Assembly (NCBI GenBank): GCA_030836925.1 | Contig: JAUPLK010000001.1 | Span: forward strand, 1-27,018 | DNA: 27,018 nucleotides | Direction: 5' to 3' | Origin: Pseudomonadota bacterium | GTDB taxonomy: Bacteria > Pseudomonadota > Gammaproteobacteria > Steroidobacterales > GCA-2729495 | Program-made: the position numbers and the translations under genes | In this document: one piece after another, positions 1,119 to 24,140 of the stretch | How positions within the stretch are numbered: the stretch's first letter is position 1 | How the letters are laid out: each line of letters starts with the position of its first letter | Notes under the pieces: model-generated | What the model was told of the DNA's origin: nothing | The model's database searches: none | The model's input: the letters and a program-made list of their open reading frames with translations, nothing else

Positions 1119-1133
1119 AGTATCGCGGATACT
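1119..1133. promoter_or_regulatory. Perfect inverted repeat AGTATC-gcg-GATACT in the divergent AraC/gcdH intergenic region; possible operator
   Basis: 6-bp arms with a 3-nt spacer, read directly. Function is inferred from position only. Confidence 0.3.
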
Positions 1134-1269
1134 AGCGCGGCCGGGCCCGCTGCAGACTGTACCGGCCGTTTCGGCCAATGCGGCTGCGCAAACCGTATAA
1201 CGGGCGGGCAGACGGCTTTGCTAAAAGTTCGCTTTGATCCCCCTCCTCTGACGCACAGGACATACGAGC

Positions 1270-2487: not shown

Positions 2488-2516
2488 GCGGGCTTGTGTT
2501 TCAGCCGATCGGGCTC

Positions 2517-2533
2517 GACTATTGGCAATAGTC
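2517..2533. promoter_or_regulatory. Perfect 17-bp palindrome GACTATTG-G-CAATAGTC just upstream of the SD of the second AraC gene; candidate operator
   Basis: 8-bp arms and 1-nt spacer, AT-rich in a GC-rich context, followed by GGAGG and the GTG start. Confidence 0.5.
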
Positions 2534-2550
2534 ATCCGGGAGGCGCCGCC

Positions 2551-3594
2551 GTGGAGCTGCAGGAGACCAGGGACCCGCACATCATCGCCGGCTGGGCCGT
2601 TGCCGTAGCCCAGGCGCTGGACGCCCGCGGGCTCGACAGCCGTGCGATCTTCAACGCCGCCGGCATCGATCTTGCCGCCGCCCGTGTTCCCACCACGCGC
2701 TTTCCAGCGGCGGCCATGACCCGCGTTTATGAGCTGGCGGACGCTGCAACCGACGATCCCTCCTTCGGACTGTCCATTGCCGAATTCGTGCATGCCACCT
2801 CACTGCACGCGCTGGGCTTCTCGCTGCTCGCGAGCAGCACACTTGAATCCTTCTGCCGGCGGGTGGTGCGGTATTTCCGTCTGGTCAGCACCAATGCCGA
2901 CTGTCAGATGGAGCGTACCGCGACCGAGTACCGCCTGGTCATGGCGCCTACCATCGATCGTCAGCAGTACTATCCGCAGGATGCGTGGATGGCCACGGCG
3001 GTGCGGTTCATGCGCGAGATCTATCGCCCGGACTTTGCGCCCATGTCGGTGTGCCTGAGCCGGCCGCGGCCGCGCGAAAAGGTGCAGCGCTTCGAACAGT
3101 TTTTCGGGACGACGGTGATCTACGGTTGCCCGACCAACAGCCTGATACTCGATCTGCGTGACATGAGCGTGGAGCTGCCGGCCGCCAATGCCGAACTTGC
3201 CCGGCAAAACGATGCCGTGGTCATGGCCTTGCTGGCACGCATGGATCGCGACGACATCATCGCCCGGGTGCGCGCCCTGTTCATCGAGTTGCTGCCATCC
3301 GGGGAATGCAGCAAGGAGAAGGTTGCCGCGCGTCTCAACATGAGTGACCGGTCCCTGCAGAGCAAACTGGCGACCCGCAACACGAGTTATCGCAATCTGC
3401 TCAATGAGACCCGCCGGGAGCTGGCCCAGCTCTATATCCGCCAGGGGCTGCACTCGGTCAGCGAGGTCACCTACCTGCTCGGTTTCGCCGATGTCAGCAG
3501 CTTTTCCCGGGCCTTCCGCAGCTGGGAGGGGCTCTCGCCGAGCGAATACAAGGACCAGTCCCTGGGCCGGCGGTCGGGGGCGGCGGTCGAGTAA
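2551..3594 (+). CDS. AraC family transcriptional regulator (Arabinose_bd_2 / OruR-like N-terminal domain + HTH), 347 aa
   Basis: GTG start at 2551 preceded by GGAGG, so the ORF-track start at 2494 is probably too long. HTH region [19 protein letters not shown]...[30 protein letters not shown]. Confidence 0.92.
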
Positions 3595-3680
3595 GCGCCT
3601 GCCCGGCGCCCCCAGCCTGGCCGGATCGCCCGCCGGCAGCGGCCTCACGGGCCCCGATCTACGCCCCGGACCCTGCCGAT

Positions 3681-3709
3681 TTGAAAAAAACTGCTGGCCC
3701 GCATACACT
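3681..3709 (+). promoter_or_regulatory. Sigma70 promoter of rplM-rpsI: TTGAAA (3681-3686), 17 nt, TACACT (3704-3709)
   Basis: Near-consensus hexamers with exact 17-bp spacing, about 70 nt upstream of the rplM ATG. Confidence 0.8.
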
Positions 3710-3711
3710 TT

Positions 3712-3776
3712 GCGGCCCTCGCCGAGGGCTGTCCGGTTTTCCGGGTCCAGCCCAGGCATTTAATTACAGGTGTCGA
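3712..3776 (+). promoter_or_regulatory. rplM 5' leader with alternative hairpins (putative ribosomal-protein autoregulatory leader)
   Basis: GCCCTC-gcc-GAGGGC (3715-3729), or alternatively GGGCTG(3726-3731)/CAGCCC(3748-3753) enclosing CCGG-tttt-CCGG. Confidence 0.4.
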
Positions 3777-4669: not shown

Positions 4670-4743
4670 TGGGGGATCGTCCAGCGGTAGGACATCGGAC
4701 TCTGACTCCGAGAACCTAGGTTCGAATCCTAGTCCCCCAGCCA
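4670..4743 (+). tRNA. tRNA-Gln, anticodon CTG (4702-4704), CCA encoded
   Basis: Full cloverleaf: acceptor TGGGGGA/TCCCCCA, D-stem GTCC/GGAC, anticodon stem TCGGA/TCCGA with loop CTCTGAC, T-arm CTAGG-TTCGAAT-CCTAG, 3' GCCA. Confidence 0.98.
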
Positions 4744-5848: not shown

Positions 5849-6463
5849 TCACTCCGTTCGTGTGCCGAAACGGCAACTCAAAGTGCCTTCATCGGTCACG
5901 ACTGCTTCGAGTTTGACGTCGTGTTTCTCGTGCGGAACACCGCTGATCTGCTGAAATGCATAAGCCAGTCCGATGAAGTGCGGCCGACGACAGTGCCTGC
6001 GTTGCGCAAGAAAGGCGAGCGTTCGGTCGTAGTAACCACCGCCCATGCCAAGCCGGTAGCCGTCTGCATCGAAGCCCAGCAGCGGTGCAAGGATGACATC
6101 CATCTCGCGTGCGCTGCGCCAGTCATCATCACTGCAGACCGGTTCGGCGATGCCGAAGCGATTGCTGGCCAGCAGGCTGTCAGCTGCAAAGGGAGCGAAG
6201 CGCAGTTCGCTGCCGACCACCACCGGAAGAAAGACTTCTCGTCCGCGTCGCCATGCCGCGCTGATCACGGGTGTGCAGTCGAGCTCACCGGATACCGGTA
6301 AATACAGGGCCAGGCGCCTGCTGCGCGCGAGGACCGGCAAGCGCCAGATCCTGGCGGCAACCCGCATGGCGGCCTGCTCCATCTGTGCCGGGGTCAATGC
6401 CCGGCGTTGTGCCAGCAGAAGCTGGCGGTGCTGTGATCTGGAAAGTGGTTTGCCGTTTGTCAT
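5849..6463 (-). CDS. ygfA: 5-formyltetrahydrofolate cyclo-ligase, 204 aa
   Basis: LALYLPVSGELDC, DVILAPLLGFDADGYRLGMGGGYYDRTL, HDVKLEAVVTD. Canonical position directly after 6S RNA. ATG at 6463 chosen because the longer ORF start lies inside the 6S RNA. Confidence 0.96.
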   Translation of the reverse strand: MTNGKPLSRSQHRQLLLAQRRALTPAQMEQAAMRVAARIWRLPVLARSRRLALYLPVSGELDCTPVISAAWRRGREVFLPVVVGSELRFAPFAADSLLASNRFGIAEPVCSDDDWRSAREMDVILAPLLGFDADGYRLGMGGGYYDRTLAFLAQRRHCRRPHFIGLAYAFQQISGVPHEKHDVKLEAVVTDEGTLSCRFGTRTE

Positions 6464-6475
6464 GGCGGGGAAGGT

Positions 6476-6664
6476 GGTCCCTCCCACCTGTGCCGGTGCA
6501 GCCTGCTGCTCACCGACCGGGAGCATCAGGTGGAATCAAATGCGGCAGAGAAGGCTTCCCGCACGAGGCGGTCATGCACAAACTACCGACAACCAGCGAT
6601 TCCGAAAGCGCGATTAAGGGTCGAGAGACCAATCAAGCCGCTGTCGAACACCGCAGGAGGGACC
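6476..6664 (-). ncRNA. ssrS: 6S RNA (about 189 nt)
   Basis: Conserved zapA-ssrS-ygfA position. Terminal pairing GGTCCCTCC/GGAGGGACC. 6S-like segments GTGTTCG..AGCGG, GCATG, GAAGCCTT, CAGGCTGC. TATAAT just upstream. Ends approximate. Confidence 0.9.
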
Positions 6665-9375: not shown

Positions 9376-10908
9376 ATGAAGGCCTATAAAGTCTGGGTGC
9401 TGGCCCTGGCCCTGTTTCTGGTCGGCGGTGCCCTGTTTGTCTACAAGTGGCAGGGGCTCGGCTATCCGCTGCTGCCCGAGGAGGAGACGCGCATCTGGAC
9501 GGTCGAGGCCACGCTCAAGTTCGATGCCGGTCCGGCACCGGTGCCGGCCAAGGTCACGCTGTATGTGCCGGCACTGACGCCGGGCTTCGCCATCCTCGAC
9601 GAGAATTTCGTGTCACGCGGCTTTGGTTTCACCACCCGTTACGTGAGCGGCGGGCGGCAGGTGCAATGGGCCGTGCGCCGGATCAAGGGTGAACAGACGC
9701 TCTATTATCGGGCCACCATCTACAAGGATCCGCTGCAGGCCGAAAATGACTCCACGCCGCCGTTTCCGGCACCGCCCCGGCTGCGTGAGCCAGACAGTCT
9801 GGCCATGCAGCAACTGGTCGGACAGATACAGAGCCAGTCGGCGGATCCGGCCTCGTTTACCGTCGAACTGCTCAAGCGACTGGCGAATCCCGGCACCGAC
9901 CAGAATGTGCTGATGCTGCTCGGCTCGCAGGCCGGCACGACCTCGCGCGCGCTCACGGCGATAACCGTGCTGGCGGCGGCACAGATTCCGGCCCGGCTGC
10001 TGCGCGGGGTCTATCTGACCGATCGCGAACGGCAGGCGCGCATGCTGCCCTGGCTGGAGGTGCACGATGGCGAGCGCTGGATCTATTTTGATCCGGCCAC
10101 CGGCGCCCAGGGCCTGCCGGAAAACTTCCTGGTGTGGTGGCGTGGTTCCGAGCCTCTGTATACCCGCGACGGAGGTGGCGACACCGAGGTGCAGTTTTCA
10201 GTCCAGCGCAATGAAGTCGATCCGGTGCTGGTTGCGGAGCGCAGGGCGGTGGCGTGGCAGTCGCGGATTGCGGACTTCTCCATGTTTTCACTGCCGATCC
10301 AGACCCAGGCGGTCTATGGCATCCTGCTGATGATTCCGCTCGGCGCACTGCTGGTGGTCTTTCTGCGCAACATCGTCGGCATCAAGACCTTCGGCACCTT
10401 CATGCCGGTACTGGTCGCACTGGCCTTCCGCGAAACCCAGGTTGTGGCGGGTGTGATCCTGTTTTCCCTGGTTGTGGTGCTGGGTTTGCTGTTCCGCTTC
10501 TTCATGGAGCACCTGCGTCTGCTGCTGGTGCCACGACTTGCCGCGGTGCTGATCATCGTGGTGCTGCTCATGGTGCTGATCAGCATCGTCGGTCACCAGC
10601 TCGGCCTGGACATGGGTCTGTCGGTCGGGCTGTTCCCGATGGTCATTCTGACCATGACCATCGAACGCATGTCGATCGTCTGGGAGGAGCGCGGGCCCAC
10701 CGAAGCGATCCAGCAAGGTCTGGGCAGCCTGCTGGTCGCCGCGCTGTGTTTCAGCGTGATGGATATCGAAGTCCTCAAGCACCTGTTCTTCGTCTTTCCG
10801 GAGCTGCTGCTCTGGCTGCTCGCCATCACCCTGCTGCTCGGGCGCTACAGCGGCTACCGGCTGCTTGAGCTGCTGCGCTTCAAGACCCTCGCGGATCCGG
10901 CGCCCTGA
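9376..10908 (+). CDS. Inactive transglutaminase fused to a 7-TM domain (Transglut_i_TM + 7TM_transglut type), 510 aa
   Basis: N-terminal TM, DENFVSRGFG, transglutaminase-like IPARLLRG...PWLEV...WIYFDP lacking the catalytic Cys and His, and hydrophobic C-terminus with RNIVGIKTFGTFMPVL and FPMVILTMTIERMSIVWEERG. Confidence 0.88.
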   Translation: MKAYKVWVLALALFLVGGALFVYKWQGLGYPLLPEEETRIWTVEATLKFDAGPAPVPAKVTLYVPALTPGFAILDENFVSRGFGFTTRYVSGGRQVQWAVRRIKGEQTLYYRATIYKDPLQAENDSTPPFPAPPRLREPDSLAMQQLVGQIQSQSADPASFTVELLKRLANPGTDQNVLMLLGSQAGTTSRALTAITVLAAAQIPARLLRGVYLTDRERQARMLPWLEVHDGERWIYFDPATGAQGLPENFLVWWRGSEPLYTRDGGGDTEVQFSVQRNEVDPVLVAERRAVAWQSRIADFSMFSLPIQTQAVYGILLMIPLGALLVVFLRNIVGIKTFGTFMPVLVALAFRETQVVAGVILFSLVVVLGLLFRFFMEHLRLLLVPRLAAVLIIVVLLMVLISIVGHQLGLDMGLSVGLFPMVILTMTIERMSIVWEERGPTEAIQQGLGSLLVAALCFSVMDIEVLKHLFFVFPELLLWLLAITLLLGRYSGYRLLELLRFKTLADPAP

Positions 10909-11870
10909 TGTTTGGTCTCGCCAGAAAGCTGTCGACCAAGGGTGTGCTCGGCATCAACGCCCGCAACTGCAATTACATCCTGCGGCACAATCCGCGCAGA
11001 CTGTACCCGCTGGTCGATGACAAGCTGGCCACCAAGCGACTGGCAATTGCCGCCGGGCTGCCGGTGCCGGACCTGTATGGCGTGATCGCCAGCCATCGCG
11101 ACGTGCGTGAATTGCCGAAGCTGGTGGCCGGACACCGTGATTTCGTCATCAAGCCGGCCCATGGCTCGGGCGGGGACGGGATTCTCGTGGTGTCAGCGCG
11201 GGTCAGGGACGGTTCGGCCTACCGCCTGGTCGATGGCACCATCATGGATGGTGACGACATCGGCCATCACCTGTCGAACATCATCAGTGGCCAGTACAGC
11301 CTTGGCGGACACCGTGACGTTGCCCTGATTGAATACTGCGTGAAGTTCGACCCGATCTTCAGCGAGTGTGCCTATCGTGGCATCCCCGATATCCGCGTCA
11401 TCGTGTTCCGTGGTTATCCGGTGATGGCCATGCTGCGACTGCCAACCCGCAAGTCGCACGGCAAGGCCAATCTGCACCAGGGTGCGGTGGGTGCCGGCCT
11501 GGACCTCGCCACCGGGGAGACCACCTGCGCGGTGATTGGCAATTCGGGGATCACCGAACATCCGGATACCGGTGCCCTCATCGCCGGGCGGCAGATTCCG
11601 CGCTGGCCTTATCTGCTGGATTTTGCCGCACGTTGCCATGAACTGACCGGGCTCGGTTACATAGGCGTCGACATCGTGCTCGACCGTGACAAGGGGCCGA
11701 TGTTGCTTGAGCTCAATGTCCGTCCGGGTCTCAATATCCAGATCGCCAACCGCTGCGGATTGCGTGACCGGCTCAAGATCATTGAAGCGCAGCCCGACGG
11801 CGTTGGTGTCGCGGAACGCGTGGCATTCTCCATGGGCTCGCTGCTGCAGCCTGCAACTGCAGCGCATTGA
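10908..11870 (+). CDS. Alpha-L-glutamate ligase-like ATP-grasp protein (RimK-related, TIGR02291 type), 320 aa
   Basis: GVLGINARN, YPLVDDKLATK, FVIKPAHGSGGDGI, PDIRVIV, ANLHQG, GVDIVLD...LLELNVRPGLNIQIAN. TGATG overlap with the 7TM gene. Confidence 0.9.
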   Translation: MFGLARKLSTKGVLGINARNCNYILRHNPRRLYPLVDDKLATKRLAIAAGLPVPDLYGVIASHRDVRELPKLVAGHRDFVIKPAHGSGGDGILVVSARVRDGSAYRLVDGTIMDGDDIGHHLSNIISGQYSLGGHRDVALIEYCVKFDPIFSECAYRGIPDIRVIVFRGYPVMAMLRLPTRKSHGKANLHQGAVGAGLDLATGETTCAVIGNSGITEHPDTGALIAGRQIPRWPYLLDFAARCHELTGLGYIGVDIVLDRDKGPMLLELNVRPGLNIQIANRCGLRDRLKIIEAQPDGVGVAERVAFSMGSLLQPATAAH

Positions 11871-11884
11871 TCAAGGCAAAACTG

Positions 11885-12988
11885 ATGGCGCACCAAACTC
11901 CCCTGTATGCCGACCATGTCGCCAACGACGCCCGGATCGTCGAATTCGGCGGTTGGGACATGCCTTTGCAGTACACATCCGCGCTCGCCGAGCATCACGC
12001 CGTCCGCCAGTCCTGCGGCATCTTTGACGTATCACACATGACCGTCGTGGACCTGACCGGTCCGGACAGCACGCGTTTTCTGATGCGGCTGCTGGCCAAT
12101 GATCCGGGCAAGCTCAAGAGCGTGGGGCAGGGCTTGTACAGCTGCATGCTCAACGACGCGGGTGGTGTGGTCGATGACCTGATCGTTTACCGGCTGGGCG
12201 ACAATGTCTACCGGATCGTCATCAATGCCGCCACGCGTGTCCAGGATCTGGGCTGGATGGCGCGGGTGGCAGATCGCGACGACGTCGTGATCCGGCATCG
12301 CGACGATTTCCTCATGATCGCCGTGCAGGGACCGAAGGCGCGTGAACTTGCCGCCCCCCTGCTGGCGGAAGAAATGCGGGCTCCGGCGCTGGCGCTGCGC
12401 CCGTTTGAATGCGTTCGCCATGATCATGTGTTCGTGGCCCGCACCGGTTATACCGGCGAGGATGGCTTTGAAATCGTGCTGCCGGTCGAGGCCGGGATTG
12501 CCCTGTGGCGGGCGCTGGCCGCTGCGGGTGCGGTCCGTTGCGGTCTCGGCTCGCGGGATACACTGCGCCTCGAGGCTGCGCTCAATCTCTATGGTCAGGA
12601 CATGGACGCGGGGACCTCGCCGCTGGTGTCAGGGCTGGGCTGGACGGTCGCCCTTGAGCCCGCTGACCGTGACTTCCGTGGCCGTGCGGCATTGGAAAAG
12701 CAGATCGCTGACGGCATCACCGAAAAGCTCACCGGTCTGGTGCTGGAGGATCGCGGTATCATGCGCCATGGCCAGCGGGTGCTGACTGCGGCTGGCGAAG
12801 GCATCATTACCAGTGGTGGGTTCTCGCCGACCATGGAACGTTCGATTGCGCTGGCGCGGTTGCCGGTCGCAGCGAGCGGATCCTGTCAGGTCGATATCCG
12901 TGGTGTGCTGCGCAAGGCACGGATCGTCAAGCCGCCGTTCGTGCGCCGCGGGCGCATTCTGGTCGATGACGCCCCGGTTCAGAAATAA
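11885..12988 (+). CDS. gcvT: Glycine cleavage system T protein (aminomethyltransferase), 367 aa
   Basis: FGGWDMPLQY, FDVSHM, ARTGYTGEDGFEI, GLGSRDTLRLEA, ITSGGFSPT. Confidence 0.98.
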   Translation: MAHQTPLYADHVANDARIVEFGGWDMPLQYTSALAEHHAVRQSCGIFDVSHMTVVDLTGPDSTRFLMRLLANDPGKLKSVGQGLYSCMLNDAGGVVDDLIVYRLGDNVYRIVINAATRVQDLGWMARVADRDDVVIRHRDDFLMIAVQGPKARELAAPLLAEEMRAPALALRPFECVRHDHVFVARTGYTGEDGFEIVLPVEAGIALWRALAAAGAVRCGLGSRDTLRLEAALNLYGQDMDAGTSPLVSGLGWTVALEPADRDFRGRAALEKQIADGITEKLTGLVLEDRGIMRHGQRVLTAAGEGIITSGGFSPTMERSIALARLPVAASGSCQVDIRGVLRKARIVKPPFVRRGRILVDDAPVQK

Positions 12989-13009
12989 CTGCAGGGAACA
13001 GATACAGGC

Positions 13010-13402
13010 ATGACTCAGGTACCGCAAAACCTCAAATACACCGAGGATCACGAATGGGTCCGGACCGAAGCCGATGGCTCGGTCATCATCGGCGTCACCG
13101 ACCACGCCCAGCACCAGCTTGGCGAACTCGTCTACGTCGAATTGCCGGACGCCGGCCGGAAAGTTGCGCGTGGCGACGCGATGGCCGTGGTGGAGTCCAC
13201 CAAGGCGGCATCGGATGTCTACGCGCCGCTCGCCGGGGTGGTCGTCGAGGCCAATCCGGCACTCGCCAGCCAGCCGGAGCTCGTGAACAATGATCCTTAT
13301 GGCGAGGGTTGGCTGCTGCGGCTGCGCCCCGACAGTGCGACCGACCTCGCTGCCCTGAAGGACAGTACCGCGTACACACAACTGCTGGCCGCAGGGGACT
13401 GA
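13010..13402 (+). CDS. gcvH: Glycine cleavage system H protein, 130 aa
   Basis: [26 protein letters not shown], lipoyl-Lys motif [24 protein letters not shown]. Confidence 0.98.
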
Positions 13403-13440
13403 GACAGTCTGCAGGCGACCGCCAATTCACGGGAAGCGAC

Positions 13441-14805
13441 GTGCCATTCATTCCACATACCGACGACGATCTGGCGGCGATGCTGCAGACGATCGGCGTT
13501 GCAGATATCGATACCCTGTTCGACGAAATCCCGGCCGCCCTGCGTGTCAGCGGTCTGCCCGGGGTACCGCCCGGCATGTCGGAAGCGGCTGTCACGCGCC
13601 TGATGCACGGACGCGCGGCACGCAACACCGACAGCCTCTGCTTTCTCGGTGCCGGTGCCTACGAGCACCACATTCCGGCGGCGGTCTGGGAGCTGGCCAC
13701 GCGCGGCGAGTTCTATTCGGCCTATACGCCGTACCAGGCCGAAGCCAGCCAGGGCACTTTGCAACTGATCTACGAGTACCAGTCGATGCTGGCCGGGCTG
13801 GTCGATCTCGATGTCTCCAATGCTTCGCTGTATGACGGTGCGACCGCTTTTGCCGAAGCCTGCCTGATGGCGGTGCGTGCCAGCCGCAACCGCGACTCGC
13901 GGCGGGTGCTGGTGGCCCGTTACCTGCATCCGCTCTGGCGCAAGGCTGCGGAGACGCTGCTCACCGGTCAGGCGGTCGAACTGGTCGAACTGCCATCGGC
14001 TGACGGCCGTACCGATGCCGGAGCGCTGGCAACACTGGACGCGCAGGATTTCGCGGCCGTGTGTCTGCCCTGGCCGAATTTTCTCGGCGGACTCGAGCCG
14101 GTCGACGAGCTGACCGACTGGGCGCACAGCCACAACCTGCTGGTGATCGCGGTCTGCAATCCGGTTGCGCTCGGACTGCTCAAGCCGCCCGGCAAGTGGG
14201 GTGCGCAGGGCGCCGATATCGCCTGCGGCGAAGGGCAACCGCTCGGCATTCCGCTGGCTTCAGGCGGTCCGTATTTCGGGTTCATGGCCTGCCGTCAGGC
14301 GCTGGTACGGCAGATGCCGGGCCGGATCGTCGGCCAGACGCTGGACATCGAAGGCCGGCGCGGTTTCACGCTTACCCTGCAGGCCCGCGAGCAGCATATC
14401 CGGCGCTCGAAGGCGACCTCCAACATCTGCACCAACCAGGGCCTGATGGTGACCGCCGCCACCATTCACATGAGCCTGCTCGGCAGTGAAGGCTTGCGGC
14501 GCGTGGCTGCGCAGTGCCATGCCAATACCCGCTCGCTGGTGGGCGCGCTGACCAGCCTCGACGGTGTGGCGTTGTACTTTGCGCCGTATTTCCACGAAGC
14601 AGTCCTGCAGCTGCCACGGCCTGTCGCGCCGATGCTGGCCGAGCTTGCGGCCGCCGGCATCCTTGGTGGCTACGACCTGAGCGCCGATTTCCCCGAGCTG
14701 GGCCAGGGCCTGCTGGTGTGCGCCACCGAGCTGCGTACCGCTGAAGATATCGAGGCCTATCGTCTGGCGCTGGCCGGCGCGCTGGGCATGGCGGTGGCCG
14801 CATGA
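13441..14805 (+). CDS. gcvPA: Glycine dehydrogenase (decarboxylating) subunit 1, 454 aa
   Basis: GTG start giving [63 protein letters not shown]. Confidence 0.97.
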
Positions 14806-16277
14806 AACGCGAAGAGCTGATTTTCGAACAGTCGCGGCCCGGCCGGCGCGCGAGTACCCATGCCCCGGCGACACTCGCGGCAATCGATGATCTGCCGGCC
14901 GCGGTGCTGCGCGAGACGCCGCCGCCGCTGCCGGAGGTGTCGGAGTTGCAGGTCGTGCGGCATTTCACCCGCCTTTCGCAGCTCAACTTCTCCATCGACA
15001 CGCACTTTTATCCGCTCGGTTCCTGCACGATGAAGTACAACCCGCGGGTATCGAACACGCTGGCGATGCTGCCGGGCTTTCTCGCGCGGCATCCGCTCGA
15101 GCCGGACAACCATGCCCAGGGCGTGCTTGAATCGCTGTACGAATTGCAGGAGATGCTGAAGGCGGCGACCGGCATGAGCGGCGTGTCGCTGACGCCGATG
15201 GCCGGTGCGCAGGGCGAGTTTGCCGGTATCGCTATGATCCGTGCATGGCACCTGTCGCGCGGCGATACGCAGCGCACGCAGGTTATCGTGCCGGATGCCG
15301 CGCACGGCACCAATCCCGCCACCGCGACCATGTGCGGCTGCGAGGCCATCGAGATTCCGACCGGGCCGGATGGCGACGTGGACCTCGATGCCCTGCGTCA
15401 GGTGGTGGGCCCGAAGACCGCGGCGATCATGCTGACCAACCCGTCCACGCTGGGCGTGTTCGAGCGTCGCATCAGCGAGATTGCAGAAATCGTCCATGCG
15501 GCAGGCGGGCTGCTCTATTACGACGGCGCAAACCTCAATGCAATTCTCGGCCGGACGCTGCCGGCGGGGATGGGTTTTGACGTTGTGCACATCAATCTGC
15601 ACAAGACCTTCTCCACGCCACACGGCGGCGGCGGACCGGGCGCCGGCATCGTGGCGGTCAATGCGCGCCTGGAGCCCTTCCTGCCGATACCGATCGTCGG
15701 CAAACGCGAGGGCGGCCATGTGTGGCTGACCGAAGCCGACCGCCCGCAGACCATCGGCCGGCTGTCGGGTTTCATGGGCAATACCGGCATCCTGCTGCGC
15801 GCCTATGTCTACATGCGCCTGCTGGGCGCGGAGGGCATGCGCCGCGTGTCGGGCTATGCCACGCTGAATGCCAACTACCTGTGTGTGCGACTGGCGGCTG
15901 CCGGCTTCACCATCGCCTATCCGCGACGGCGCGCGAGCCACGAGTTCATCATCTCCCTCAAGGACATTGCCCGCGACACCGGCGCCACGGCGATGGACTT
16001 TGCCAAGGCCTTGCTCGATCGCGGCTTTCACGCGCCGACCACCTACTTCCCGTTGCTGGTGCCGGAGTGCCTGCTGATCGAACCGACCGAAACGGAAACG
16101 CGGCAGGAGCTGGATGCCTTCGTGCAGGCGCTCAGCGAGATCCGCGACCTGGCGATCCGCGACGTCGGCGAGCTGAAGCGCGCACCGCAGACCACGCCGG
16201 TGCGGCGGCTCGACGATGTGCGCGCGGCCCGGCAGCTGGACCTGACCTGGCAGGGCAAGCCCAGAACCGTCAACTGA
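14802..16277 (+). CDS. gcvPB: Glycine dehydrogenase (decarboxylating) subunit 2, 491 aa
   Basis: [33 protein letters not shown]-Lys motif [30 protein letters not shown] overlap. Confidence 0.97.
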
Positions 16278-16313
16278 TACCCGCGCTACGCGCCCATCCA
16301 GGAGAGTGAAGAT

Positions 16314-17252
16314 TTGTCAGCCCTGATCTGCGGTTCCATTGCCTACGACAACATCATGGTGTTTCAGGGACGCTTCAAGGAACACATCCTTCCCGACCAG
16401 ATTCACATCCTCAACGTTGCCTTTCTCGTGCCGGAGCTGCGCCGCGAGTTTGGCGGCTGCGCGGGCAACATCGCCTACAACCTGAAGCTGCTCGGCGACG
16501 AACCGCTGATCATGGCCACGGTGGGCGGTGATTTCGGCAGTTACCGTGCCTGGCTCGAACGCCACGGCATCGACCAGCGTCATATCCGCGAGCTGCCGGA
16601 TACCCTGTGCGCGCAGGCCTACATCACCACCGATCTGGATGACAACCAGATCACGGCCTTTCATCCCGGCGCGATGAACCATGCCCATCTCAACCAGGTG
16701 CCCGCTGCTGCGGGGCTGAAGCTCGGCATGATTTCGCCCGATGGACGTGACGGCATGCTGGAGCATGCCGAACAGTTTCATGCGGCCGGCGTGCCCTTCA
16801 TTTTCGATCCCGGGCAGGGCTTGCCCATGTTTGGCGGCGAAGAACTGCGGCGCTTCATCGAGCTGGCGAGCTGGGTCGCGGTCAACGATTACGAATCCAG
16901 GTTGCTCAGCGAACGCACGGGCTGGAACGAGGCAGAGCTGGCCCGCCATGTCGATGCCTTCATCGTCACGCGTGGCGCACAGGGCTCGACGATCTGGGCC
17001 AACGGCGAGTGCATCACGATTCCGGCGGTCAAGCCGGCGGCAGTGCTGGATCCCACCGGTTGCGGCGACGCCTACCGGGCCGGCCTGCTGTTCGGTCTGT
17101 CGCGCGGGCTGGGCTGGGAAGAAACCGGACGCATCGCCGCCCTGCTCGGTGCCATCAAGATCGCCCATCGTGGCACGCAAAACCACCAGTTCAGCCCCGT
17201 ATCACTGGCGCAGGAGTTTCGTGCGGCATTCGGGCATGCGCCCGGCTTCTGA
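16314..17252 (+). CDS. PfkB family carbohydrate/nucleoside kinase, adenosine-kinase-like, 312 aa
   Basis: TTG start with GGAG upstream. GSIAYDNIM, FGGCAGNIAYNL, DPGQG, anion-hole motif DPTGCGDAYRAG. Confidence 0.9.
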   Translation: MSALICGSIAYDNIMVFQGRFKEHILPDQIHILNVAFLVPELRREFGGCAGNIAYNLKLLGDEPLIMATVGGDFGSYRAWLERHGIDQRHIRELPDTLCAQAYITTDLDDNQITAFHPGAMNHAHLNQVPAAAGLKLGMISPDGRDGMLEHAEQFHAAGVPFIFDPGQGLPMFGGEELRRFIELASWVAVNDYESRLLSERTGWNEAELARHVDAFIVTRGAQGSTIWANGECITIPAVKPAAVLDPTGCGDAYRAGLLFGLSRGLGWEETGRIAALLGAIKIAHRGTQNHQFSPVSLAQEFRAAFGHAPGF

Positions 17253-20046
17253 GATTTCTGCGCTGTTCCTGTGCCTGGCGGTGGTGCCGGCACTGTGGGC
17301 GGCAGATGTGTCCGCGCCCGGTGCCTGGCGCAACACCATTGAACGGATCTCGCCGGCGGTGGTGTCCATCCAGGTTGACGGTACCCGTGCCTTCGATACC
17401 GAATGGAATGAATCGAGTCAGGCGACCGGCTTCGTGGTCGACGCCGAGCGGGGCCTGATCCTCACCAATCGCCACGTCGTCACCTCCGGGCCGGTGCGCG
17501 CGGTCGCCATACTCACCAATCAGGAAGAACTCGAGCTGACGCCGGTTTACCGCGATCCGGTGCATGATTTCGGCTTTTATCGCTACGAGCCGCGGAGTCT
17601 CAAGTACATGAAGCCGCAGGCGCTGCGGCTCAACCCGGCCGGTGCACAGATCGGCCGCGAGATCCGCGTGGTTGGCAACGATGGCGGCGAGCAGTTGTCG
17701 ATCCTGTCCGGAACCATCGCCCGGCTGCGCCGCGAAGCGCCCGACTACGGCCGCGGCAAGTACAACGACTTCAACACTTTCTACCTGCAGGCGGCGTCCA
17801 GTACCTCGGGCGGCTCGTCGGGTTCGCCGGTCATCGATATTCGTGGCGATGTGGTGGCGCTGAATGCCGGCGCCAGCAGCGAGACGGCATCGAGTTTCTT
17901 CCTGCCGCTGGATCGCGTGCAGCACGTGCTTGAGTTGCTGCGTGCGGGCCAGCCCGTGGCGCGCGGAACGCTGGGAGCGATCTTCAGCTACACGGCATTT
18001 GATCAGCTGCGTCGCCTCGGGCTGCGTGAGACGAGCGAAGCGGCGGTACGCCAGCGTTTCCCTGACGGTATCGGCATGCTGGTGGTGAGCGAGGTGCTGC
18101 CTGGCGGGCCGGCGGCCGGTGCCCTGCAGGTCGGCGATGTGCTCGTACAGGTCAATGGCGACTACATATCGGAGTTCGTGCCCCTGGCTGCCGTGCTGGA
18201 TGCGCGCGTGGGCCAGCCCGTCGATCTGCTCGTCGAGCGTGGCGGCCAGGTGATCAGCCTGAGTCTCGGCGTGCAGGACCTGCACCGCTTCAATCCCGTC
18301 GAGTATCTGCAGTTCGGCGACGCCGTGGTCAACAACCTCTCCTGGCAGCAGGCGCGTCATTTCAATCGTGCCGCCGAGGGCGTGTATGTGGCCAACCCCG
18401 GCTTCAGCCTGGCCGCCGCGGGCATTCCGCGCGGTGCGCTGATCGTGGGCGCCGGCAACGAGACGATCAACACCATCGACGATCTCGAAAGGGTGCTTGC
18501 GGGTCTCGCCGATCAGCAGCGCGCCGTGCTGCGCTTCATCACTGTCGACGAGCCTGGCTCCAGCCGCCTGCGGGTGATCCGCATGGATCGCCGCTGGTTC
18601 CCGGCGGTGCGCTGTCAGCGTGATGATGTACGCGGCGAGTGGCCGTGCCGCGAGCTGGTGGCCGGACCGCCCGCTCCGCCACCTGAAGGGGGCACAGCCA
18701 GCCTGGTTCCGCAGCGTGATGCAAGGCTGCGTCGGGTTGCCGCCTCGCTGGTGCTGGTCAACTTCGACATGCCTTACGTGGTTTCTGGCGTATCCGAGCA
18801 GCATTACTACGGGACCGGCGTCGTGGTGGATGCAGAGCGAGGTTACGTGGTCGTCGATCGCAACACGATTCCCGAGGCCATGGGCGATGTGCGGCTCACT
18901 TTCGGCGGCACGCTCGAGATACCAGCCCGCGTGGTCGTCGTGCATCCACTGCACAACCTGGTGCTGGTGGCCTATGACCCGACACTCATCGGCGACACGC
19001 CGGTCGAATCAGCGCGCCTTGGCACGGCCTTGCCGGATCCCGGTGACGAGTTGTGGGTGATCGGTCTGCGCGGTGGCGAAAAACTGGTCTCACAACTGAC
19101 GACCTTCTCCACACTTGAACCGGTCGACTACCCGCTGTCGCGCACGATGCGTTTCCGTGACAGCAACCTGGAAACCCTGGCGCTGGTCAATCCGCCCCGC
19201 GACATCGATGGTGTGGTGACCAACCGCAAGGGTGAGGTGGTCTCGCTGTGGTCGAGTTTCGCCTGGCAGGGCAACGGCCAGTTGCGGCAGGAAAATCGCG
19301 GCATGCCGGCCGAGTATGTGACTGAACTGCTTGAACTCGCCGGCGGTGACCAGCCCCTGCATTCGCTGGAAGTGGAGTGGGCGCAGATGCCGCTGGCTGC
19401 CGCGCGTCGTCTCGGACTGCCGGCGGTGTGGGCAGAGCGCATTGCCGGACATGATCCCGAGCGCCGCCAGATCCTGAGCGTCACGCGCACGGTGGCCGGA
19501 TCGCCTGCCGCAGGACTGTTGCAGCCCGGTGATCTGCTGCTGACCGTCGATGGTCAGCCGGCGACACGTTTCCGCCAGGTCGACCGACTGACGCAGAAGC
19601 CGGCAGTCGTGCTGGAAGTGCTCCGCAACAGCGAAGTGCTGAGTCTGGAGGTGGCGACCGTGGCGCTCGATGGCAGCGGCATCCGTCGTGCGGTGCTGTG
19701 GGCCGGTGCCCTGCTGCAGGCGCCCTATCGCGACATGGCCGCACAGCGTGGCGTCGAACCCACCGGGGTGTATGTCTCCTACTTTGCCTTCGGGTCACCG
19801 GCGTCGCGTTATGGCCTGTTTGCCGGGCGGCGGATCACGGCCGTGGATGGCATGGCTGTCGCCGGCCTGGATGAATTCATCGCAGTGGTCAGTGGCCGGC
19901 GCAACCGCGACTCGGTGCGGCTTACGACCGTTACCTGGAACGGTCAGGTCGAAGTACTGACGCTCAGGCTGGATGACACCTACTGGCCGTCGTACCAGAT
20001 CGTCTGGCACGACGGCCAATGGCATCGCGAAGCCTTGCTACGGTGA
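17236..20046 (+). CDS. Exported tandem HtrA-type serine protease (protease-PDZ-PDZ-degenerate protease-PDZ-PDZ), DEG7/Nma111-like, 936 aa
   Basis: ATG at 17236 gives a signal-peptide-like MRPASEISALFLCLAVVPALWA. Triad TNRH80, DPVHD111, GGSS195GSP. The second half repeats VDAERG with His/Asp replaced by Asn543/Asn574. The ORF-track extension from 16741 overlaps the kinase and is spurious. Confidence 0.88.
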   Translation: MRPASEISALFLCLAVVPALWAADVSAPGAWRNTIERISPAVVSIQVDGTRAFDTEWNESSQATGFVVDAERGLILTNRHVVTSGPVRAVAILTNQEELELTPVYRDPVHDFGFYRYEPRSLKYMKPQALRLNPAGAQIGREIRVVGNDGGEQLSILSGTIARLRREAPDYGRGKYNDFNTFYLQAASSTSGGSSGSPVIDIRGDVVALNAGASSETASSFFLPLDRVQHVLELLRAGQPVARGTLGAIFSYTAFDQLRRLGLRETSEAAVRQRFPDGIGMLVVSEVLPGGPAAGALQVGDVLVQVNGDYISEFVPLAAVLDARVGQPVDLLVERGGQVISLSLGVQDLHRFNPVEYLQFGDAVVNNLSWQQARHFNRAAEGVYVANPGFSLAAAGIPRGALIVGAGNETINTIDDLERVLAGLADQQRAVLRFITVDEPGSSRLRVIRMDRRWFPAVRCQRDDVRGEWPCRELVAGPPAPPPEGGTASLVPQRDARLRRVAASLVLVNFDMPYVVSGVSEQHYYGTGVVVDAERGYVVVDRNTIPEAMGDVRLTFGGTLEIPARVVVVHPLHNLVLVAYDPTLIGDTPVESARLGTALPDPGDELWVIGLRGGEKLVSQLTTFSTLEPVDYPLSRTMRFRDSNLETLALVNPPRDIDGVVTNRKGEVVSLWSSFAWQGNGQLRQENRGMPAEYVTELLELAGGDQPLHSLEVEWAQMPLAAARRLGLPAVWAERIAGHDPERRQILSVTRTVAGSPAAGLLQPGDLLLTVDGQPATRFRQVDRLTQKPAVVLEVLRNSEVLSLEVATVALDGSGIRRAVLWAGALLQAPYRDMAAQRGVEPTGVYVSYFAFGSPASRYGLFAGRRITAVDGMAVAGLDEFIAVVSGRRNRDSVRLTTVTWNGQVEVLTLRLDDTYWPSYQIVWHDGQWHREALLR

Positions 20047-20814
20047 CGGATCTGCCTTCAGCCCGGCAAACTTTGCCCGCCAGTCCGTGCTCGGTGAGCC
20101 GGGAACGGTGTGGGTTTCGAAGGTGCGGTTGCGGGCCTCCGGGTACTTGAGCGCCTGCACGCATATCGTGGCGACATCGGCACGTGCGATCGTCGTCTGT
20201 CCGGTGACCTTGTCGCCCTGTTCCAGTACAAAGGCGCTCTTGCCCGGTTCGGCGTTTGTCAGTCCGCCCGGCCGGATGATCGTGTAGGGCACACCGCTCG
20301 CGCGCAGTGCATTCTCGCCCTGCAGCTTCCACTTGAGTACATCACCGAACATCCGGTTCAGGGGGTGGTCCTCCTGGGTTACCGCACGCGACGACACGAG
20401 CACGAAGTGCCGTACACCGGCAGCTGATGCGGCGCTCGCCAGGTTCTTGACGCCCATGTAGTCGATCACCTCCGGTCGGCCAGGTCCCTTTGCACCCTTG
20501 GCGCCGATCGTCGAGATGACGGCATCGGCGCCCTGCATGGCCGGTGCCAGCGTGGCGGGGTCGGTGACATCGCCAGTGAGATAAGTGACCTGCTCGCCGA
20601 GCACGGCCCGCGCCTTGGCTGGATCCCGCACCAGTACGCGCACCGTATAGCCTTCGGCCAGCAACTGGGCCACGAGTGGCGTGCCGGTGCGACCGGTGGC
20701 GCCGGCGACCAGCACGGTTTTGGGTGCCGCCGACAGGCCGCCGGTGCCGGTCGAACACGCGCCAAGAGCCAACACGCACGCGCCGATCAAGGCGCTTCTT
20801 CTGGTCAGGGACAT
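20038..20814 (-). CDS. NAD(P)-binding atypical SDR (NAD_binding_10 type) with a predicted lipoprotein signal, 258 aa
   Basis: VLVAGATGRTG Rossmann motif, IDYMGVKNL, SGVPYTIIRPGGL, IARADVA. N-terminus MSLTRRSALIGACVLALGAC. GGAG upstream of ATG 20814. Confidence 0.88.
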   Translation of the reverse strand: MSLTRRSALIGACVLALGACSTGTGGLSAAPKTVLVAGATGRTGTPLVAQLLAEGYTVRVLVRDPAKARAVLGEQVTYLTGDVTDPATLAPAMQGADAVISTIGAKGAKGPGRPEVIDYMGVKNLASAASAAGVRHFVLVSSRAVTQEDHPLNRMFGDVLKWKLQGENALRASGVPYTIIRPGGLTNAEPGKSAFVLEQGDKVTGQTTIARADVATICVQALKYPEARNRTFETHTVPGSPSTDWRAKFAGLKADPSP

Positions 20815-20887
20815 GGGCAGGTTCTCCATTGAATGTGCCCCGAGCATACCCAAGCGCGACAGGCTGCGCGAGTCCCGCACGCGCGGG

Positions 20888-20893
20888 TATGAT
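20888..20893 (+). promoter_or_regulatory. -10 element TATGAT 6 nt upstream of the AKR start codon
   Basis: TATGAT-cggcgg-ATG. No SD and no clear -35. Confidence 0.45.
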
Positions 20894-20899
20894 CGGCGG

Positions 20900-21883
20900 A
20901 TGAAACAGCGAAAACTCGGCAATACCGGTCAGGCGGTGTCTGCGCTAGGTCTCGGCTGCATGGGCATGGTGGGCTGGTATGGCCAGCGCGATGATGCCGA
21001 GGCACGGGCCACGCTGCATCGGGCGCTCGATCTCGGCATCAACCATCTCGATACGGCTGCCGTCTATCAGGACGGCGCCAATGAGCGCTTTGTCGGCGAG
21101 GCGATCCGCGGACGCCGCGATGAAGTGTTCATCGCCACCAAGTGCGGCCTGGCACGCAGCCCCGCGGGGCGGATCACGGCCGACAACCGGGCGGACACGA
21201 TTCGCCGTTCCTGCGACGAGAGCCTGCAACGGCTGGGCGTCGAGCAGATCGACCTTTTTTATCTGCACCGCATCGATCCGCAGGTGCCGATCGAGGACTC
21301 GATGGGCGTGATGGCCGGGCTGGTGCAGGCGGGGAAGATCCGCTACACCGGCATTTCGGAGGCCGGTCCGGAGACCCTGCGCCGTGCCCACCGGACGCAT
21401 CCGCTGGCGGCCCTGCAAAGCGAGTTGTCGCCCTGGACCAGAAATGCCTGCCGTGCGACCCTCGATGTCTGCAGGGAACTCGGCATTGCATTTGTTGCCT
21501 ACAGTCCGCTCGGGCGCGGTTTCCTGACCGGTGCCATCAGCAGCGGCGGGGATTTTCCCGAAGGCGATACGCGACGCATGTTCCCGCGCTTTCAGCCGGA
21601 AAATCTGCAGCACAATCTGGCAGCGGTCGAACGTTTGCGCGAACTGGCACATGGCATCGGTTGCACGCCTGCGCAGTTGTCACTCGCCTGGGTGCTGGGC
21701 CAGTGGCAGGGCGTGTTGCCGATTCCCGGCACCAAGAAGCGCCGCTACCTGGAAGAGAATGCAGCGGCTGCCGAGTTGCAGCTTGCGGCCGATCAGTTGG
21801 CGGCAATCGAGCGTGCGATACCGGAGGAACTGGTGCATGGCGAGCGTTATCCCGCAGGCATGCTGGAGACACTCAATGTCTGA
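20900..21883 (+). CDS. Aldo/keto reductase, 327 aa
   Basis: LGLGCMGM, catalytic tetrad in DTAAVY, ATK and YLHRID. YSPLGRGFLTG, PIPGTKK. Confidence 0.95.
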   Translation: MKQRKLGNTGQAVSALGLGCMGMVGWYGQRDDAEARATLHRALDLGINHLDTAAVYQDGANERFVGEAIRGRRDEVFIATKCGLARSPAGRITADNRADTIRRSCDESLQRLGVEQIDLFYLHRIDPQVPIEDSMGVMAGLVQAGKIRYTGISEAGPETLRRAHRTHPLAALQSELSPWTRNACRATLDVCRELGIAFVAYSPLGRGFLTGAISSGGDFPEGDTRRMFPRFQPENLQHNLAAVERLRELAHGIGCTPAQLSLAWVLGQWQGVLPIPGTKKRRYLEENAAAAELQLAADQLAAIERAIPEELVHGERYPAGMLETLNV

Positions 21884-22415
21884 GCCCGTGCTGGCTGGCC
21901 GGCGTCGCTGGTTCACGCTGCTACTCCTCCTGCCGCTGCTGTCGGGCGGCTGCGCGCTGTTCAAGGGCAAGCTTGAGGCGCCGAAGGTCACGCTGAGTGG
22001 CATTACGCCGGAAAAACTCGAGCGCGGCAGCCAGGTGTTGCGTTGCCGGTTGCTGCTTGAGAACCCCAACAACGAGGACCTGCGGGTGGTCGGCGGCAAG
22101 GTCAGGCTCGAGATCGATGGTGTCTCGGCCGGCAAGGGTGAAACGATCGAGGGTTTTGTGCTGCCTGCACTTGATTCAAAGGAAGTCGAGCTGCGTGTGA
22201 CGCTGGATCTGCTGTCGTCACTGACCGGCGCACTGCGTTCGCTGGGTTCCGGCAAGCCGGCGCTTGAGTACACCCTGAAGGGTTATGTGGACCTGGATGT
22301 GAAGGCGCTGGGGCGATTGCCTTTCAGCAGCAGTGGCAAGATCAAGTTCGATGACCTGCTGCGGCACGCGCCGGGTTTGTTGCGTTCCATACCGGATCCG
22401 GAGAAAACGTCATGA
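21876..22415 (+). CDS. LEA type 2 (WHy) domain lipoprotein, 179 aa
   Basis: Basic n-region, hydrophobic stretch and LLSGGC lipobox-like site. LLLENPNNEDLRV motif, beta-rich body with YTLKGYV. 8-nt overlap with the AKR. Confidence 0.75.
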   Translation: MSEPVLAGRRRWFTLLLLLPLLSGGCALFKGKLEAPKVTLSGITPEKLERGSQVLRCRLLLENPNNEDLRVVGGKVRLEIDGVSAGKGETIEGFVLPALDSKEVELRVTLDLLSSLTGALRSLGSGKPALEYTLKGYVDLDVKALGRLPFSSSGKIKFDDLLRHAPGLLRSIPDPEKTS

Positions 22416-22972
22416 CCACACTCAGTGAGCGAATCGCCGGCGAGCGTCGGCGCCTCAAGTCCGTGCGACAGCTGCTCACCGCCGCGGTAGAGCGCAAGTC
22501 CGGTGGTGATCAGTCCTTCGTGCCGTTCTACGTCGCCCTTGGTGACTATATCGAGGCATCCATGCATCGTCTGCACGCCCAGGATGTGAAGATGGGCGAC
22601 ATGATCCGGCGCAAGCTCGTGACGCTGGATGACAATGCCAGGCAGGCGCTCGATGAACTGCATGAACGGCTTGCCGGCAACCAGGCCCACCTGACGGTTT
22701 TTTCTGCCGCAAAAAGTGCACTGCAGAGCGAGGGCGCCGATGCCTTGCCGCGCTTCGAGCAGGCCAGCGCCGCCTACACCGCCTACATCGTCGCCAACAT
22801 GGGTCATCACGGGCTCACCACCGAGCTGGCAGCAAAACTGTTCAGCGAGGCGGACTGGACGTACATGGCCGGTATTTCCGAGGTGGATACTGCAGTGGAG
22901 CAGCAACTGTATGCCCGGGTGTTCGCGTTGCTGCCGGCCGCACTGGCGGATCTGCGGTCCACGGCAGTCTGA
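22412..22972 (+). CDS. Hypothetical all-helical protein, possibly a degenerate hemerythrin/HHE fold, 186 aa
   Basis: Clean ORF coupled by an ATGA overlap. Helical pattern with scattered His (HRLH, LHE, AHL, GHH) and the hemerythrin-like tail LAAKLFSEADW. Confidence 0.6.
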   Translation: MTTLSERIAGERRRLKSVRQLLTAAVERKSGGDQSFVPFYVALGDYIEASMHRLHAQDVKMGDMIRRKLVTLDDNARQALDELHERLAGNQAHLTVFSAAKSALQSEGADALPRFEQASAAYTAYIVANMGHHGLTTELAAKLFSEADWTYMAGISEVDTAVEQQLYARVFALLPAALADLRSTAV

Positions 22973-23000
22973 AGCGATCGACGCAGTGAGGGGAGCCGGC

Positions 23001-24140
23001 ATGCTGTTGCGGCCTGTTGTTCTTGTGTCGATGCTGCTGACGCTGCCCATGGCGCCGGTCTTTGCCGAAACGCGTGTCGGCGACACCATCGTCATCAGCC
23101 AGGCGGTCGCGGACGATTTTTACGCCGTGGGCGGCAGGCTGCAGATCGACGCCTCTGTGGCTGGTGATGCCGTGCTCGCCGGCGGCAGTGTCGACATCGA
23201 GGGCGATATCGATGGCGATGTCAGCGCGACCGGCGGACAGGTCGCGATTTCCGGCGGTGTTGGCGATGATCTGCGCGCGGCAGGTGGCGAGGTCAGTCTG
23301 CGCGGCTTTGTCACCGACCACGCCGCGATAGCCGGCGGTGTGGTGCGCATCGAGGAGGGCAGTGCAATTGCCGGCCGCGCCTGGATTGCAGCTGACACCC
23401 TGTACATGGCCGGCCAGATCGGTGCTGATCTGCGGGTGTTTGCCCGGACAGTCGTCATCGCCGGCCAGATCCAGGGTGATGTGGAGATTACGGCCCGGGA
23501 AATCCGCATCGACCCGGGGGCGGTTATCGGTGGCCAGCTCATATGGCACAGCCAGGAGCCGCCGCTGATTGCCGAAGACGCGTTGATACTGGGCGATATG
23601 GCGGGCACGCAGGCGCCCGTCGATGAGTTGCCCGAAATGACGCCACCGGTGTTTGACAACTGGGCGCTGGCCATCGCCATCTTCGTTGCCGCCGCCGGCT
23701 TGTTCTGGCTGAGTCCCGCACTGGTCGAGCGTTCCGGTACCCTGTTCCATGCCGCACCGGGGCGCACGCTTGTTGTCGGCGCCATCGCGATGGCGCTGAG
23801 CCCGCTGCTCATCGTCTTTCTGTTCGTGTCGATATTCGGCTGGCTGCTCGGGCTGCTGATGCTGGTCGCTTATGTGCTGGCAGTCCTGCTGTCGGGACTG
23901 CTCGGGCTGCTGATGCTGGTCCAGCTGATCCGGATCCGCTTCGCCGCTCAGGAGCCGGTGCCGGCCACCGGCCGCAGTCCCGGCTGGCGCAGCCTGGCGT
24001 TGCTGTTGCCGGTGACACTGTTCGCATTGCTCATGCAGTCGGTGCCCGTTCTCGGCGGGCTGTTTTCGATGCTGGTTCTGCTGGCGGGCTTCGGTGCGCT
24101 TGCATCGCTGCTCATGCGTCGAGCGCCGTCAGCCGCATAG
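23001..24140 (+). CDS. Membrane protein with signal peptide, about eight 17-19-aa beta-helix (bactofilin/polymer-forming-like) repeats and C-terminal TM helices, 379 aa
   Basis: GGAG upstream of ATG 23001. Repeats [17 protein letters not shown] / [17 protein letters not shown] / [17 protein letters not shown] / [17 protein letters not shown] etc. Several long hydrophobic segments at the C-terminus. Confidence 0.8.

Follow-up and report, generated by a model that had tools for sequence, protein, structure and literature searches.

Do bacteria make the double HtrA protease known from fungi as Nma111 and from plants as DEG7, and if so, in which compartment does it act and which domain of life had it first? 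The question is raised by a locus on contig JAUPLK010000001.1 (assembly GCA_030836925.1), of which we analyzed positions 1 to 27,018 as one stretch of 27,018 nucleotides, hereafter the window. It derives from a gammaproteobacterium of the order Steroidobacterales (GTDB lineage GCA-2729495) and encodes a 936-residue protein that an earlier, sequence-only reading had described as an apparently exported homologue of the tandem protease DEG7/Nma111. We show here that the protein is a bacterial member of the Nma111/DEG7 double HtrA family (MEROPS S1C, “clade III” Deg proteases), and that the fuller description, a Sec-exported bacterial representative of this family, is likely to be correct.

Membership in the Nma111/DEG7 family

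The assignment to the family holds because architecture, motifs, sequence, and whole-chain fold all agree with it. Residues 1 to 470 and 471 to 936 align with each other over ~448 positions at 25% identity (E = 1e-21), so that the internal duplication proposed for the protein is borne out. Pfam recognizes Trypsin_2 in the first half only, PDZ_6 in four places, and PF12812 in two, one closing each half, with NNLSWQQAR and WAGALLQAP marking the starts of the two PF12812 units. Together with the structural model these matches confirm that each half carries two PDZ-like units behind its protease domain. The catalytic residues of the first half, H80 (in TNRH), D111 (in HDFGF), and S195 (in GGSSGSP), are invariant in 68 aligned family members, and the first triad is intact in more than 120 representatives. 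In the second half, N543 aligns with the histidine, N574 with the aspartate at the same 31-residue spacing, and D656 with the serine. Across the same 120+ representatives the aspartate position is nearly always Asn (HPxHN motif), while the histidine position is free and no serine motif is seen, in bacteria and eukaryotes alike. Both the intact first triad and the second site with Asn at the His and Asp positions, preserved spacing, and no serine motif had thus been read correctly. The segments YRDPVHDFGF, GGSSGSPV, and LTL..D..YWP, named in that reading as hallmarks of DEG7 and Nma111, do prove to be consensus blocks of an alignment of bacteria plus eukaryotes, the last as a C-terminal TL..D..YWP.

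An exhaustive HMMER scan over 1.84 billion cluster representatives returned 878 proteins at a cutoff of E ≤1e-30, and the top 150 are nearly all colinear and full length. Ten of the longer matches were looked up by name, and all ten are eukaryotic: oomycetes (Aphanomyces, Albugo), a choanoflagellate (Diaphanoeca), chytrid and zygomycete fungi, and a plant (Stephania), several of them named “Pro-apoptotic serine protease NMA111” by UniRef. Named eukaryotic Nma111/DEG7 proteins are colinear over ~900 residues with 34 to 42% identity (E = 1e-150 to 1e-230); against a plant DEG7-type protein, the first half shows 47% identity (E = 3e-123) and the second 32% (E = 1e-67). Solved HtrA proteases (HhoA, DegP, DegQ, HtrA1 to HtrA3) match residues ~30 to 450 only, with E values of 1e-17 to 1e-20. 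The NCBIfam DegP/Do model (TIGR02037) scores 143.1 bits, under its cutoff of 416.2, and the DegP and DegQ equivalog models score 62 to 64 bits versus cutoffs of 720 to 756. With scores under the cutoffs and twice the length, the protein lies outside the DegP/DegQ Do family. The proposed homology to DEG7/Nma111 is therefore upheld by full-length colinear matches that include PF12812, with DegP and DegQ matching the first half only; ordinary bacterial HtrA fusions, which would have spoken against it as best full-length matches, do not hold that place.

The same picture emerges from the fold. An AlphaFold2 model built on the 68-sequence alignment reaches a pLDDT of 93.3 and a pTM of 0.90, is low only at residues 1 to 30, and contains two protease folds. 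Among Swiss-Prot models searched with Foldseek, Arabidopsis DEG7 ranks first (E = 1.6e-102, TM 0.92), followed by 25 fungal entries (23 named Nma111 and two S. pombe paralogues; TM 0.91 to 0.94) that superpose with a root mean square deviation (RMSD) of about 2 Å over about 930 residues. After these the score drops to a TM of 0.28 for DegP-like proteins. The comparison sets predicted structures side by side. Sequence and fold searches of the available copies of the Protein Data Bank returned single-unit HtrA only and no Nma111 or DEG7 coordinates. A search with the first half alone for unduplicated, single-unit relatives yielded only fragments of double proteins.

The homology of bacterial proteins to Nma111 is already implicit in databases: Pfam annotates PF12812 on bacterial double HtrA proteins, and in one source a Methylococcales protein already goes by the name “pro-apoptotic serine protease NMA111.” In the literature, the 2011 survey by Schuhmann et al. 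describes the double HtrA family from fungi, plants, and algae only (PMC3194040), and the duplication has been pictured as an event within plant/fungal lineages (PMC3194040, PMC3473262). Klim et al. in 2018 and Kaczanowski’s group in 2023 treated half-size, single-unit bacterial HtrAs as “orthologues” of Nma111 (PMC5982838, PMC10565124). No paper on a bacterial double HtrA was found in the open-access literature, and as far as that literature reaches, the earlier statement that no bacterial member has been characterized stands.

Probable export and the cysteine pair

We judged export from comparative evidence, applying a hydrophobicity threshold to the N-termini of tree-defined clades. Across homologues of 99% to ~63% identity, the N-terminus stays hydrophobic while its sequence varies freely; an AxA-like site closes this leader, and then come A/S-D and the conserved beginning of the mature chain, W-R-x-T-L-E-R-I. 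In the AlphaFold2 model, the leader has a low pLDDT of 52 to 63. A leader is present in 53 of 65 bacterial representatives and in 3 of 63 eukaryotic ones. The mature protein contains exactly two cysteines, C460 and C471, which sit in the hairpin joining the two halves (strands 458 to 461 and 471 to 473). Of the 65 bacterial representatives, 58 have Cys at the first of these positions and 60 at the second, whereas no Cys occurs at either in the 63 eukaryotic ones; the median Cys count is 3 in the bacterial versus 12 in the eukaryotic representatives. Few cysteines, with one conserved pair among them, usually mark a protein that folds in an oxidizing compartment. Because of the shared signal-peptide-like leader and the bacteria-specific cysteine pair, the protein is very likely exported, as judged from these sequence features. 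The Sec signal peptide suspected earlier (a hydrophobic stretch, then ALWA/AD) thereby gains the support of a leader kept within the bacterial clade.

Weighing against this conclusion, 12 of the 65 bacterial representatives fall under the hydrophobicity threshold, and the C460-C471 disulfide is one that we infer from conservation only. In six of these 12, at most 12 residues precede the mature start, a sign that their starts may be truncated or miscalled. A lipoprotein was also considered and rejected, with C13 lying outside any lipobox context and not being conserved. Many close homologues (P0028, P0034, P0037, P0055, P0058, P0064, and P0070) start with M-x-C-x-S; their Cys at position 3 precedes the hydrophobic core of the leader and is not a lipobox.

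Two other locations have to be weighed. The protein could be cytoplasmic, through a true start further downstream or an uncleaved N-terminal anchor, and act like the intracellular Nma111 and DEG7. The ATG at 17236 has no well-spaced Shine-Dalgarno sequence, which leaves some room for this view. However, the in-frame GTG at 17221, which has AGGAG 4 nt upstream and corresponds to the start called in 97 to 98% identical homologues, yields a 941-residue form beginning MRHSGMRPASE in which the leader is unchanged and only the positively charged n-region is longer. Downstream, the translated open reading frame (ORF) holds no in-frame Met before the conserved mature start, which speaks against the later, leaderless start that would have undone the earlier proposal of export. 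The leader also drifts in sequence at constant hydrophobicity across hundreds of homologues, and the paired-cysteine signature is confined to the bacterial clade. We consider a cytoplasmic protein highly improbable. Release from the cell or display on its surface, as an extracellular protease that would help, for instance, to digest proteinaceous food or to remodel the surface, is likewise unlikely, although the leader speaks for crossing of the inner membrane only, some HtrA proteases are secreted, and the family is concentrated in the Woeseiaceae and Steroidobacteraceae, sediment and soil heterotrophs. Against it stand the lack of a lipobox and, in Pfam, of any autotransporter, T9SS, or other secretion-sorting domain; the neighborhood, which consists of glycine-cleavage and kinase genes and holds no secretion system; and the usually periplasmic location of HtrA-type cage proteases.

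Origin of the double architecture

The degenerate second unit is common to bacterial and eukaryotic members, and therefore duplication and inactivation of the second site took place a single time, before the two diverged. In full-length trees, bacteria form one clan beside a small clade of oomycetes and choanoflagellates, with fungi and plants/algae further off. For rooting, the two halves of the protein served as outgroups to each other. A first, quick paralog tree was discarded, as a constrained tree had the higher likelihood, and was superseded by a careful search and by scoring root positions with the topology held constant. The free maximum likelihood tree of both halves places the root inside bacteria in each half, at different places, and approximately unbiased (AU) tests on it do not reject bacterial monophyly (h1, P = 0.09; h2, P = 0.45). 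For the root scan, the 62-taxon full-length topology was imposed on both halves and all 121 root positions were scored. Under LG+G4, all 31 unrejected roots lie inside bacteria, the branch between the domains has a p-AU of 0.024, and roots on the eukaryotic side have P ≤0.041. The posterior mean site frequency (PMSF) model LG+C20+F+G4 fits much better than LG+G4, and its best eleven roots are still bacterial, with roots inside fungi or the plant/alga clade rejected (P ≤0.03). Our reading is that the bacterial proteins did not branch off recently from those of crown fungi or plants.

Other results count against a bacterial root. The PMSF model keeps the interdomain root (p-AU = 0.28) and two adjacent eukaryotic branches (P = 0.21 to 0.38), several of the best roots fall on long terminal branches, where long-branch attraction is a concern, and the labels bacterial and eukaryotic in the trees come mostly from clade membership with spot checks of names. 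These unrejected roots would fit a eukaryotic donor, namely a stem or early-branching lineage that passed a duplicated Nma111/DEG7 gene to bacteria, where it was then adapted for export. The broad distribution of the family in eukaryotes (PMC3194040) and the position of the bacteria as a single clan, sister to the small oomycete/choanoflagellate clade, are in keeping with such a donation. Opposed to it are the bacterial placement of the best PMSF roots and of all unrejected LG+G4 roots, the rejection of roots within fungi or the plant/alga clade, and the depth of the bacterial clade, which reaches down to 29% identity and spans Gamma-, Alpha-, and “Deltaproteobacteria”; moreover, the one demonstrable transfer runs from bacteria to a eukaryote. 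We consider a eukaryotic donor rather unlikely. A bacterial origin of the family is favored, at even chances or somewhat better: of the two options raised by the sequence-only reading, a bacterial source or a transfer from eukaryotes, the half-by-half rooting favors the former without deciding between them. There is about an even chance that the active-plus-dead HtrA architecture first arose in bacteria, in a periplasmic protease stapled by a disulfide, and that eukaryotes acquired it later, lost the leader and the cysteine pair, and put the protein to new use in the yeast nucleus (apoptosis) and the plant chloroplast (photosystem II [PSII] repair).

A separate case is P0184 (L092:4001-6865), an intronless double HtrA gene on the eukaryotic scaffold GCA_000142905.1, where its neighbors are Vta1 and EF-hand acyltransferase genes. 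In the tree it groups within the bacterial clade (100* with P0154), apparently as the result of a separate transfer from bacteria to a eukaryote. The encoded protein has neither leader nor cysteine pair and serves as an internal control for the export signature.

Distribution and genomic neighborhood

The source genome is a 2.0-Mb metagenome-assembled genome, 79% complete, which encodes two ordinary HtrA proteins besides the double protease. Among related genomes, 40 of 41 carry the double protease, covering all 17 sampled families of the order. It is found in 16 of 295 high-quality genomes drawn evenly from the class (identity down to 29%) and in 1 of 393 high-quality genomes drawn from the phylum. 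A motif scan of 185,579 species genomes recovered at least 497 with the double protease; the nearest carriers belong to the Woeseiaceae and Steroidobacteraceae, including the cultured Steroidobacter flavus and Peristeroidobacter soli, and the names of deeper bacterial representatives include Methylococcales, Marinobacter, Alphaproteobacteria, and “Deltaproteobacteria.”

The protease gene is the last of a codirectional run comprising UPF0149, pepP, 7TM-transglutaminase, ATP-grasp, gcvT, gcvH, gcvPA, gcvPB, and pfkB (Table 1). The 17-nt overlap with the kinase gene is as described before, the PfkB ORF spanning 16314 to 17252. In ~70 of 80 related loci (Woeseiaceae, Steroidobacteraceae, and relatives; L012 to L089), gcvPB lies upstream, with or without pfkB in between. 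No functional link between the protease and glycine cleavage is apparent, and we treat the arrangement as inherited synteny. A promoter/terminator scan of positions 11500 to 21000 gave nothing above shuffled expectation. GC content is flat across the window. The presence in 40 of 41 relatives, the gcvPB synteny, and the flat GC content agree with the earlier placement in a housekeeping operon and not an island; within its order, the gene has long been a housekeeping gene and is inherited vertically. Eukaryotic contamination was rejected on the overlap with bacterial genes, the window-like GC content, and the order-wide synteny.

Elsewhere in the window, the 6S/SsrS RNA lies upstream of the 5-formyltetrahydrofolate cyclo-ligase gene in the classic ssrS-ygfA arrangement. 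Base 10908 is common to the 7TM and ATP-grasp genes, and there is a further overlap, of 4 nt, between the ATP-grasp ORF and gcvT. Long minus-strand ORFs at 1132 to 3759 and 20945 to 23095 have no Pfam match and are probably not genes but shadows of plus-strand genes, which encode an acyl-CoA dehydrogenase, an AraC regulator, an aldo/keto reductase, and a LEA_2 protein.

Table 1. Coordinates of the double HtrA gene, its encoded domains, and other features of the window
Feature	Position	Strand	Basis or remark
Double HtrA (Nma111/DEG7-type) protease gene	17236..20046	+	Open ORF, 936 aa; alternative start GTG 17221 gives 941 aa
Predicted Sec signal peptide, aa 1-22, proposed cleavage ALWA/AD	17236..17301	+	Hydrophobic leader, AxA-like site, conserved mature start
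Active HtrA protease domain, aa ~30-240, triad H80/D111/S195	17323..17955	+	Pfam Trypsin_2 at 63-209, E 7e-29
PDZ1, aa ~248-345	17977..18270	+	PDZ_6, PDZ_2, and PDZ matches at 279-344; model secondary structure
PDZ2, PF12812 (PDZ_1) type, aa ~353-449	18292..18582	+	PF12812 at 353-426, 53.8 bits; 40.3 bits in genome search
Junction hairpin, aa ~454-473	18595..18654	+	Family-invariant W454/W469; bacteria-specific cysteine pair C460/C471 (probable disulfide)
Degenerate (pseudo-)protease domain, aa ~496-702	18721..19341	+	N543, N574, and D656 in place of His, Asp, and Ser
PDZ3, aa ~708-811	19357..19668	+	PDZ_6 stretches; model
PDZ4, PF12812 type, aa ~818-911	19687..19968	+	Second PF12812 stretch at aa ~818-886
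C-terminal beta-hairpin with conserved YWP motif, aa 912-936	19969..20043	+	Consensus TL..D..YWP; model strands 920-925 and 928-933
PfkB-family kinase gene, upstream of protease	16314..17252	+	Overlaps protease start by 17 nt; neighbor also in part of related loci
Glycine-cleavage genes gcvT, gcvH, gcvPA, gcvPB	11867..16277	+	gcvPB is the conserved upstream neighbor across the order
6S/SsrS RNA	6477-6662	-	68.8 bits
5-Formyltetrahydrofolate cyclo-ligase gene, longest ORF	5849-6526	-	5' end overlapped by 6S/SsrS RNA
tRNA	4670-4740	+	
Gene pair: 7TM protein with inactive transglutaminase domain (PF14402, PF14400), then ATP-grasp protein (PF14397)	9376-11870	+	
dCache_3-HAMP-GGDEF-EAL signaling protein, 832 aa	23948-26446	-	

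Proposed mechanism and comparison with characterized proteins

In the mechanism that we propose, signal peptidase I would cut off the 22-residue leader and the mature protein would fold in the periplasm, where a C460-C471 disulfide would staple the hairpin joining the two halves. The chains may then assemble into a homotrimer with the dead protease domains as scaffold, as in Arabidopsis DEG7, giving a particle that would resemble the DegP hexamer and yet be built from three chains. Unfolded envelope proteins could be degraded or chaperoned by such a particle independently of ATP, and its PDZ domains would bind and gate the substrates. Trimerization of DEG7 through its dead domain was observed by yeast two-hybrid assay and size exclusion chromatography (PMC3194040), and protease activity has been reported for both Nma111/Ynm3 and DEG7 (PMC3194040, PMC4877387). 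Three points detract from the proposal: for the bacterial protein, we infer the trimer through the dead domain from DEG7; its putative serine protease/chaperone activity is likewise carried over from the family; and our search found no activity, substrate, or phenotype data for any bacterial member. A three-copy complex prediction for the degenerate domain (aa 494 to 706) returned no answer, with a score of 0.00, and counts neither way.

Nma111p/Ynm3 of Saccharomyces cerevisiae (P53920) and its fungal orthologues have the same six-domain order (active protease, PDZ, PDZ_1, dead protease, PDZ, PDZ_1) and share the YRDPVHDFGF, GGSSGSPV, and C-terminal YWP motifs, at 31 to 37% identity, TM 0.93 to 0.94, and an RMSD of about 2 Å over about 930 residues. 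In contrast to the bacterial protein, which has a cleavable-type leader and one conserved Cys pair only, Nma111 is nuclear, with an N-terminal extension that is no signal peptide and with many cysteines; its pro-apoptotic role and its substrate Bir1 have no bacterial counterpart. DEG7 of Arabidopsis thaliana (Q8RY22) is the best structural match (34% identity) and also keeps Asn at the Asp position of its degenerate second domain, but is ~1,100 residues long, versus 936 here, and its trimerization has been demonstrated by experiment, whereas that of the bacterial protein is proposed. It has been reported in the chloroplast stroma, where it acts on photodamaged PSII proteins (PMC3194040, PMC4877387).

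The DegP and DegQ proteins of Escherichia coli (Do family, TIGR02037) resemble the bacterial double HtrA in signal-peptide export, in combining a trypsin-fold protease with two PDZ domains, and, by analogy, in a likely periplasmic protease/chaperone role; they match its first half at about 20 to 25% identity. They differ in being single units of ~450 residues that form hexamers, 12-mers, or 24-mers of six or more chains, in having neither PF12812 nor a dead second half, and in their serine motif, which is GNSGG versus GSSGS in the bacterial double HtrA.

Significance for the family

The family was known before, and the exported bacterial form, with its predicted disulfide, adds an uncharacterized branch to it, though no machine of a new kind; signs of this branch can already be seen in databases. 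That branch is large and deep, with an exported form, presumably periplasmic, and the complete architecture, and it is common in some bacterial groups. Its existence moves the duplication and the pseudo-protease scaffold back before the split between bacterial and eukaryotic members, probably into bacteria. The gene is carried by cultured Steroidobacter and Peristeroidobacter, and the branch could provide simple bacterial systems for the question of how a dead protease domain organizes an HtrA particle. Finally, the family may offer a natural example of compartment switching, with a leader and a cysteine pair in bacteria that were lost in eukaryotes, including in the copy nested among bacteria.

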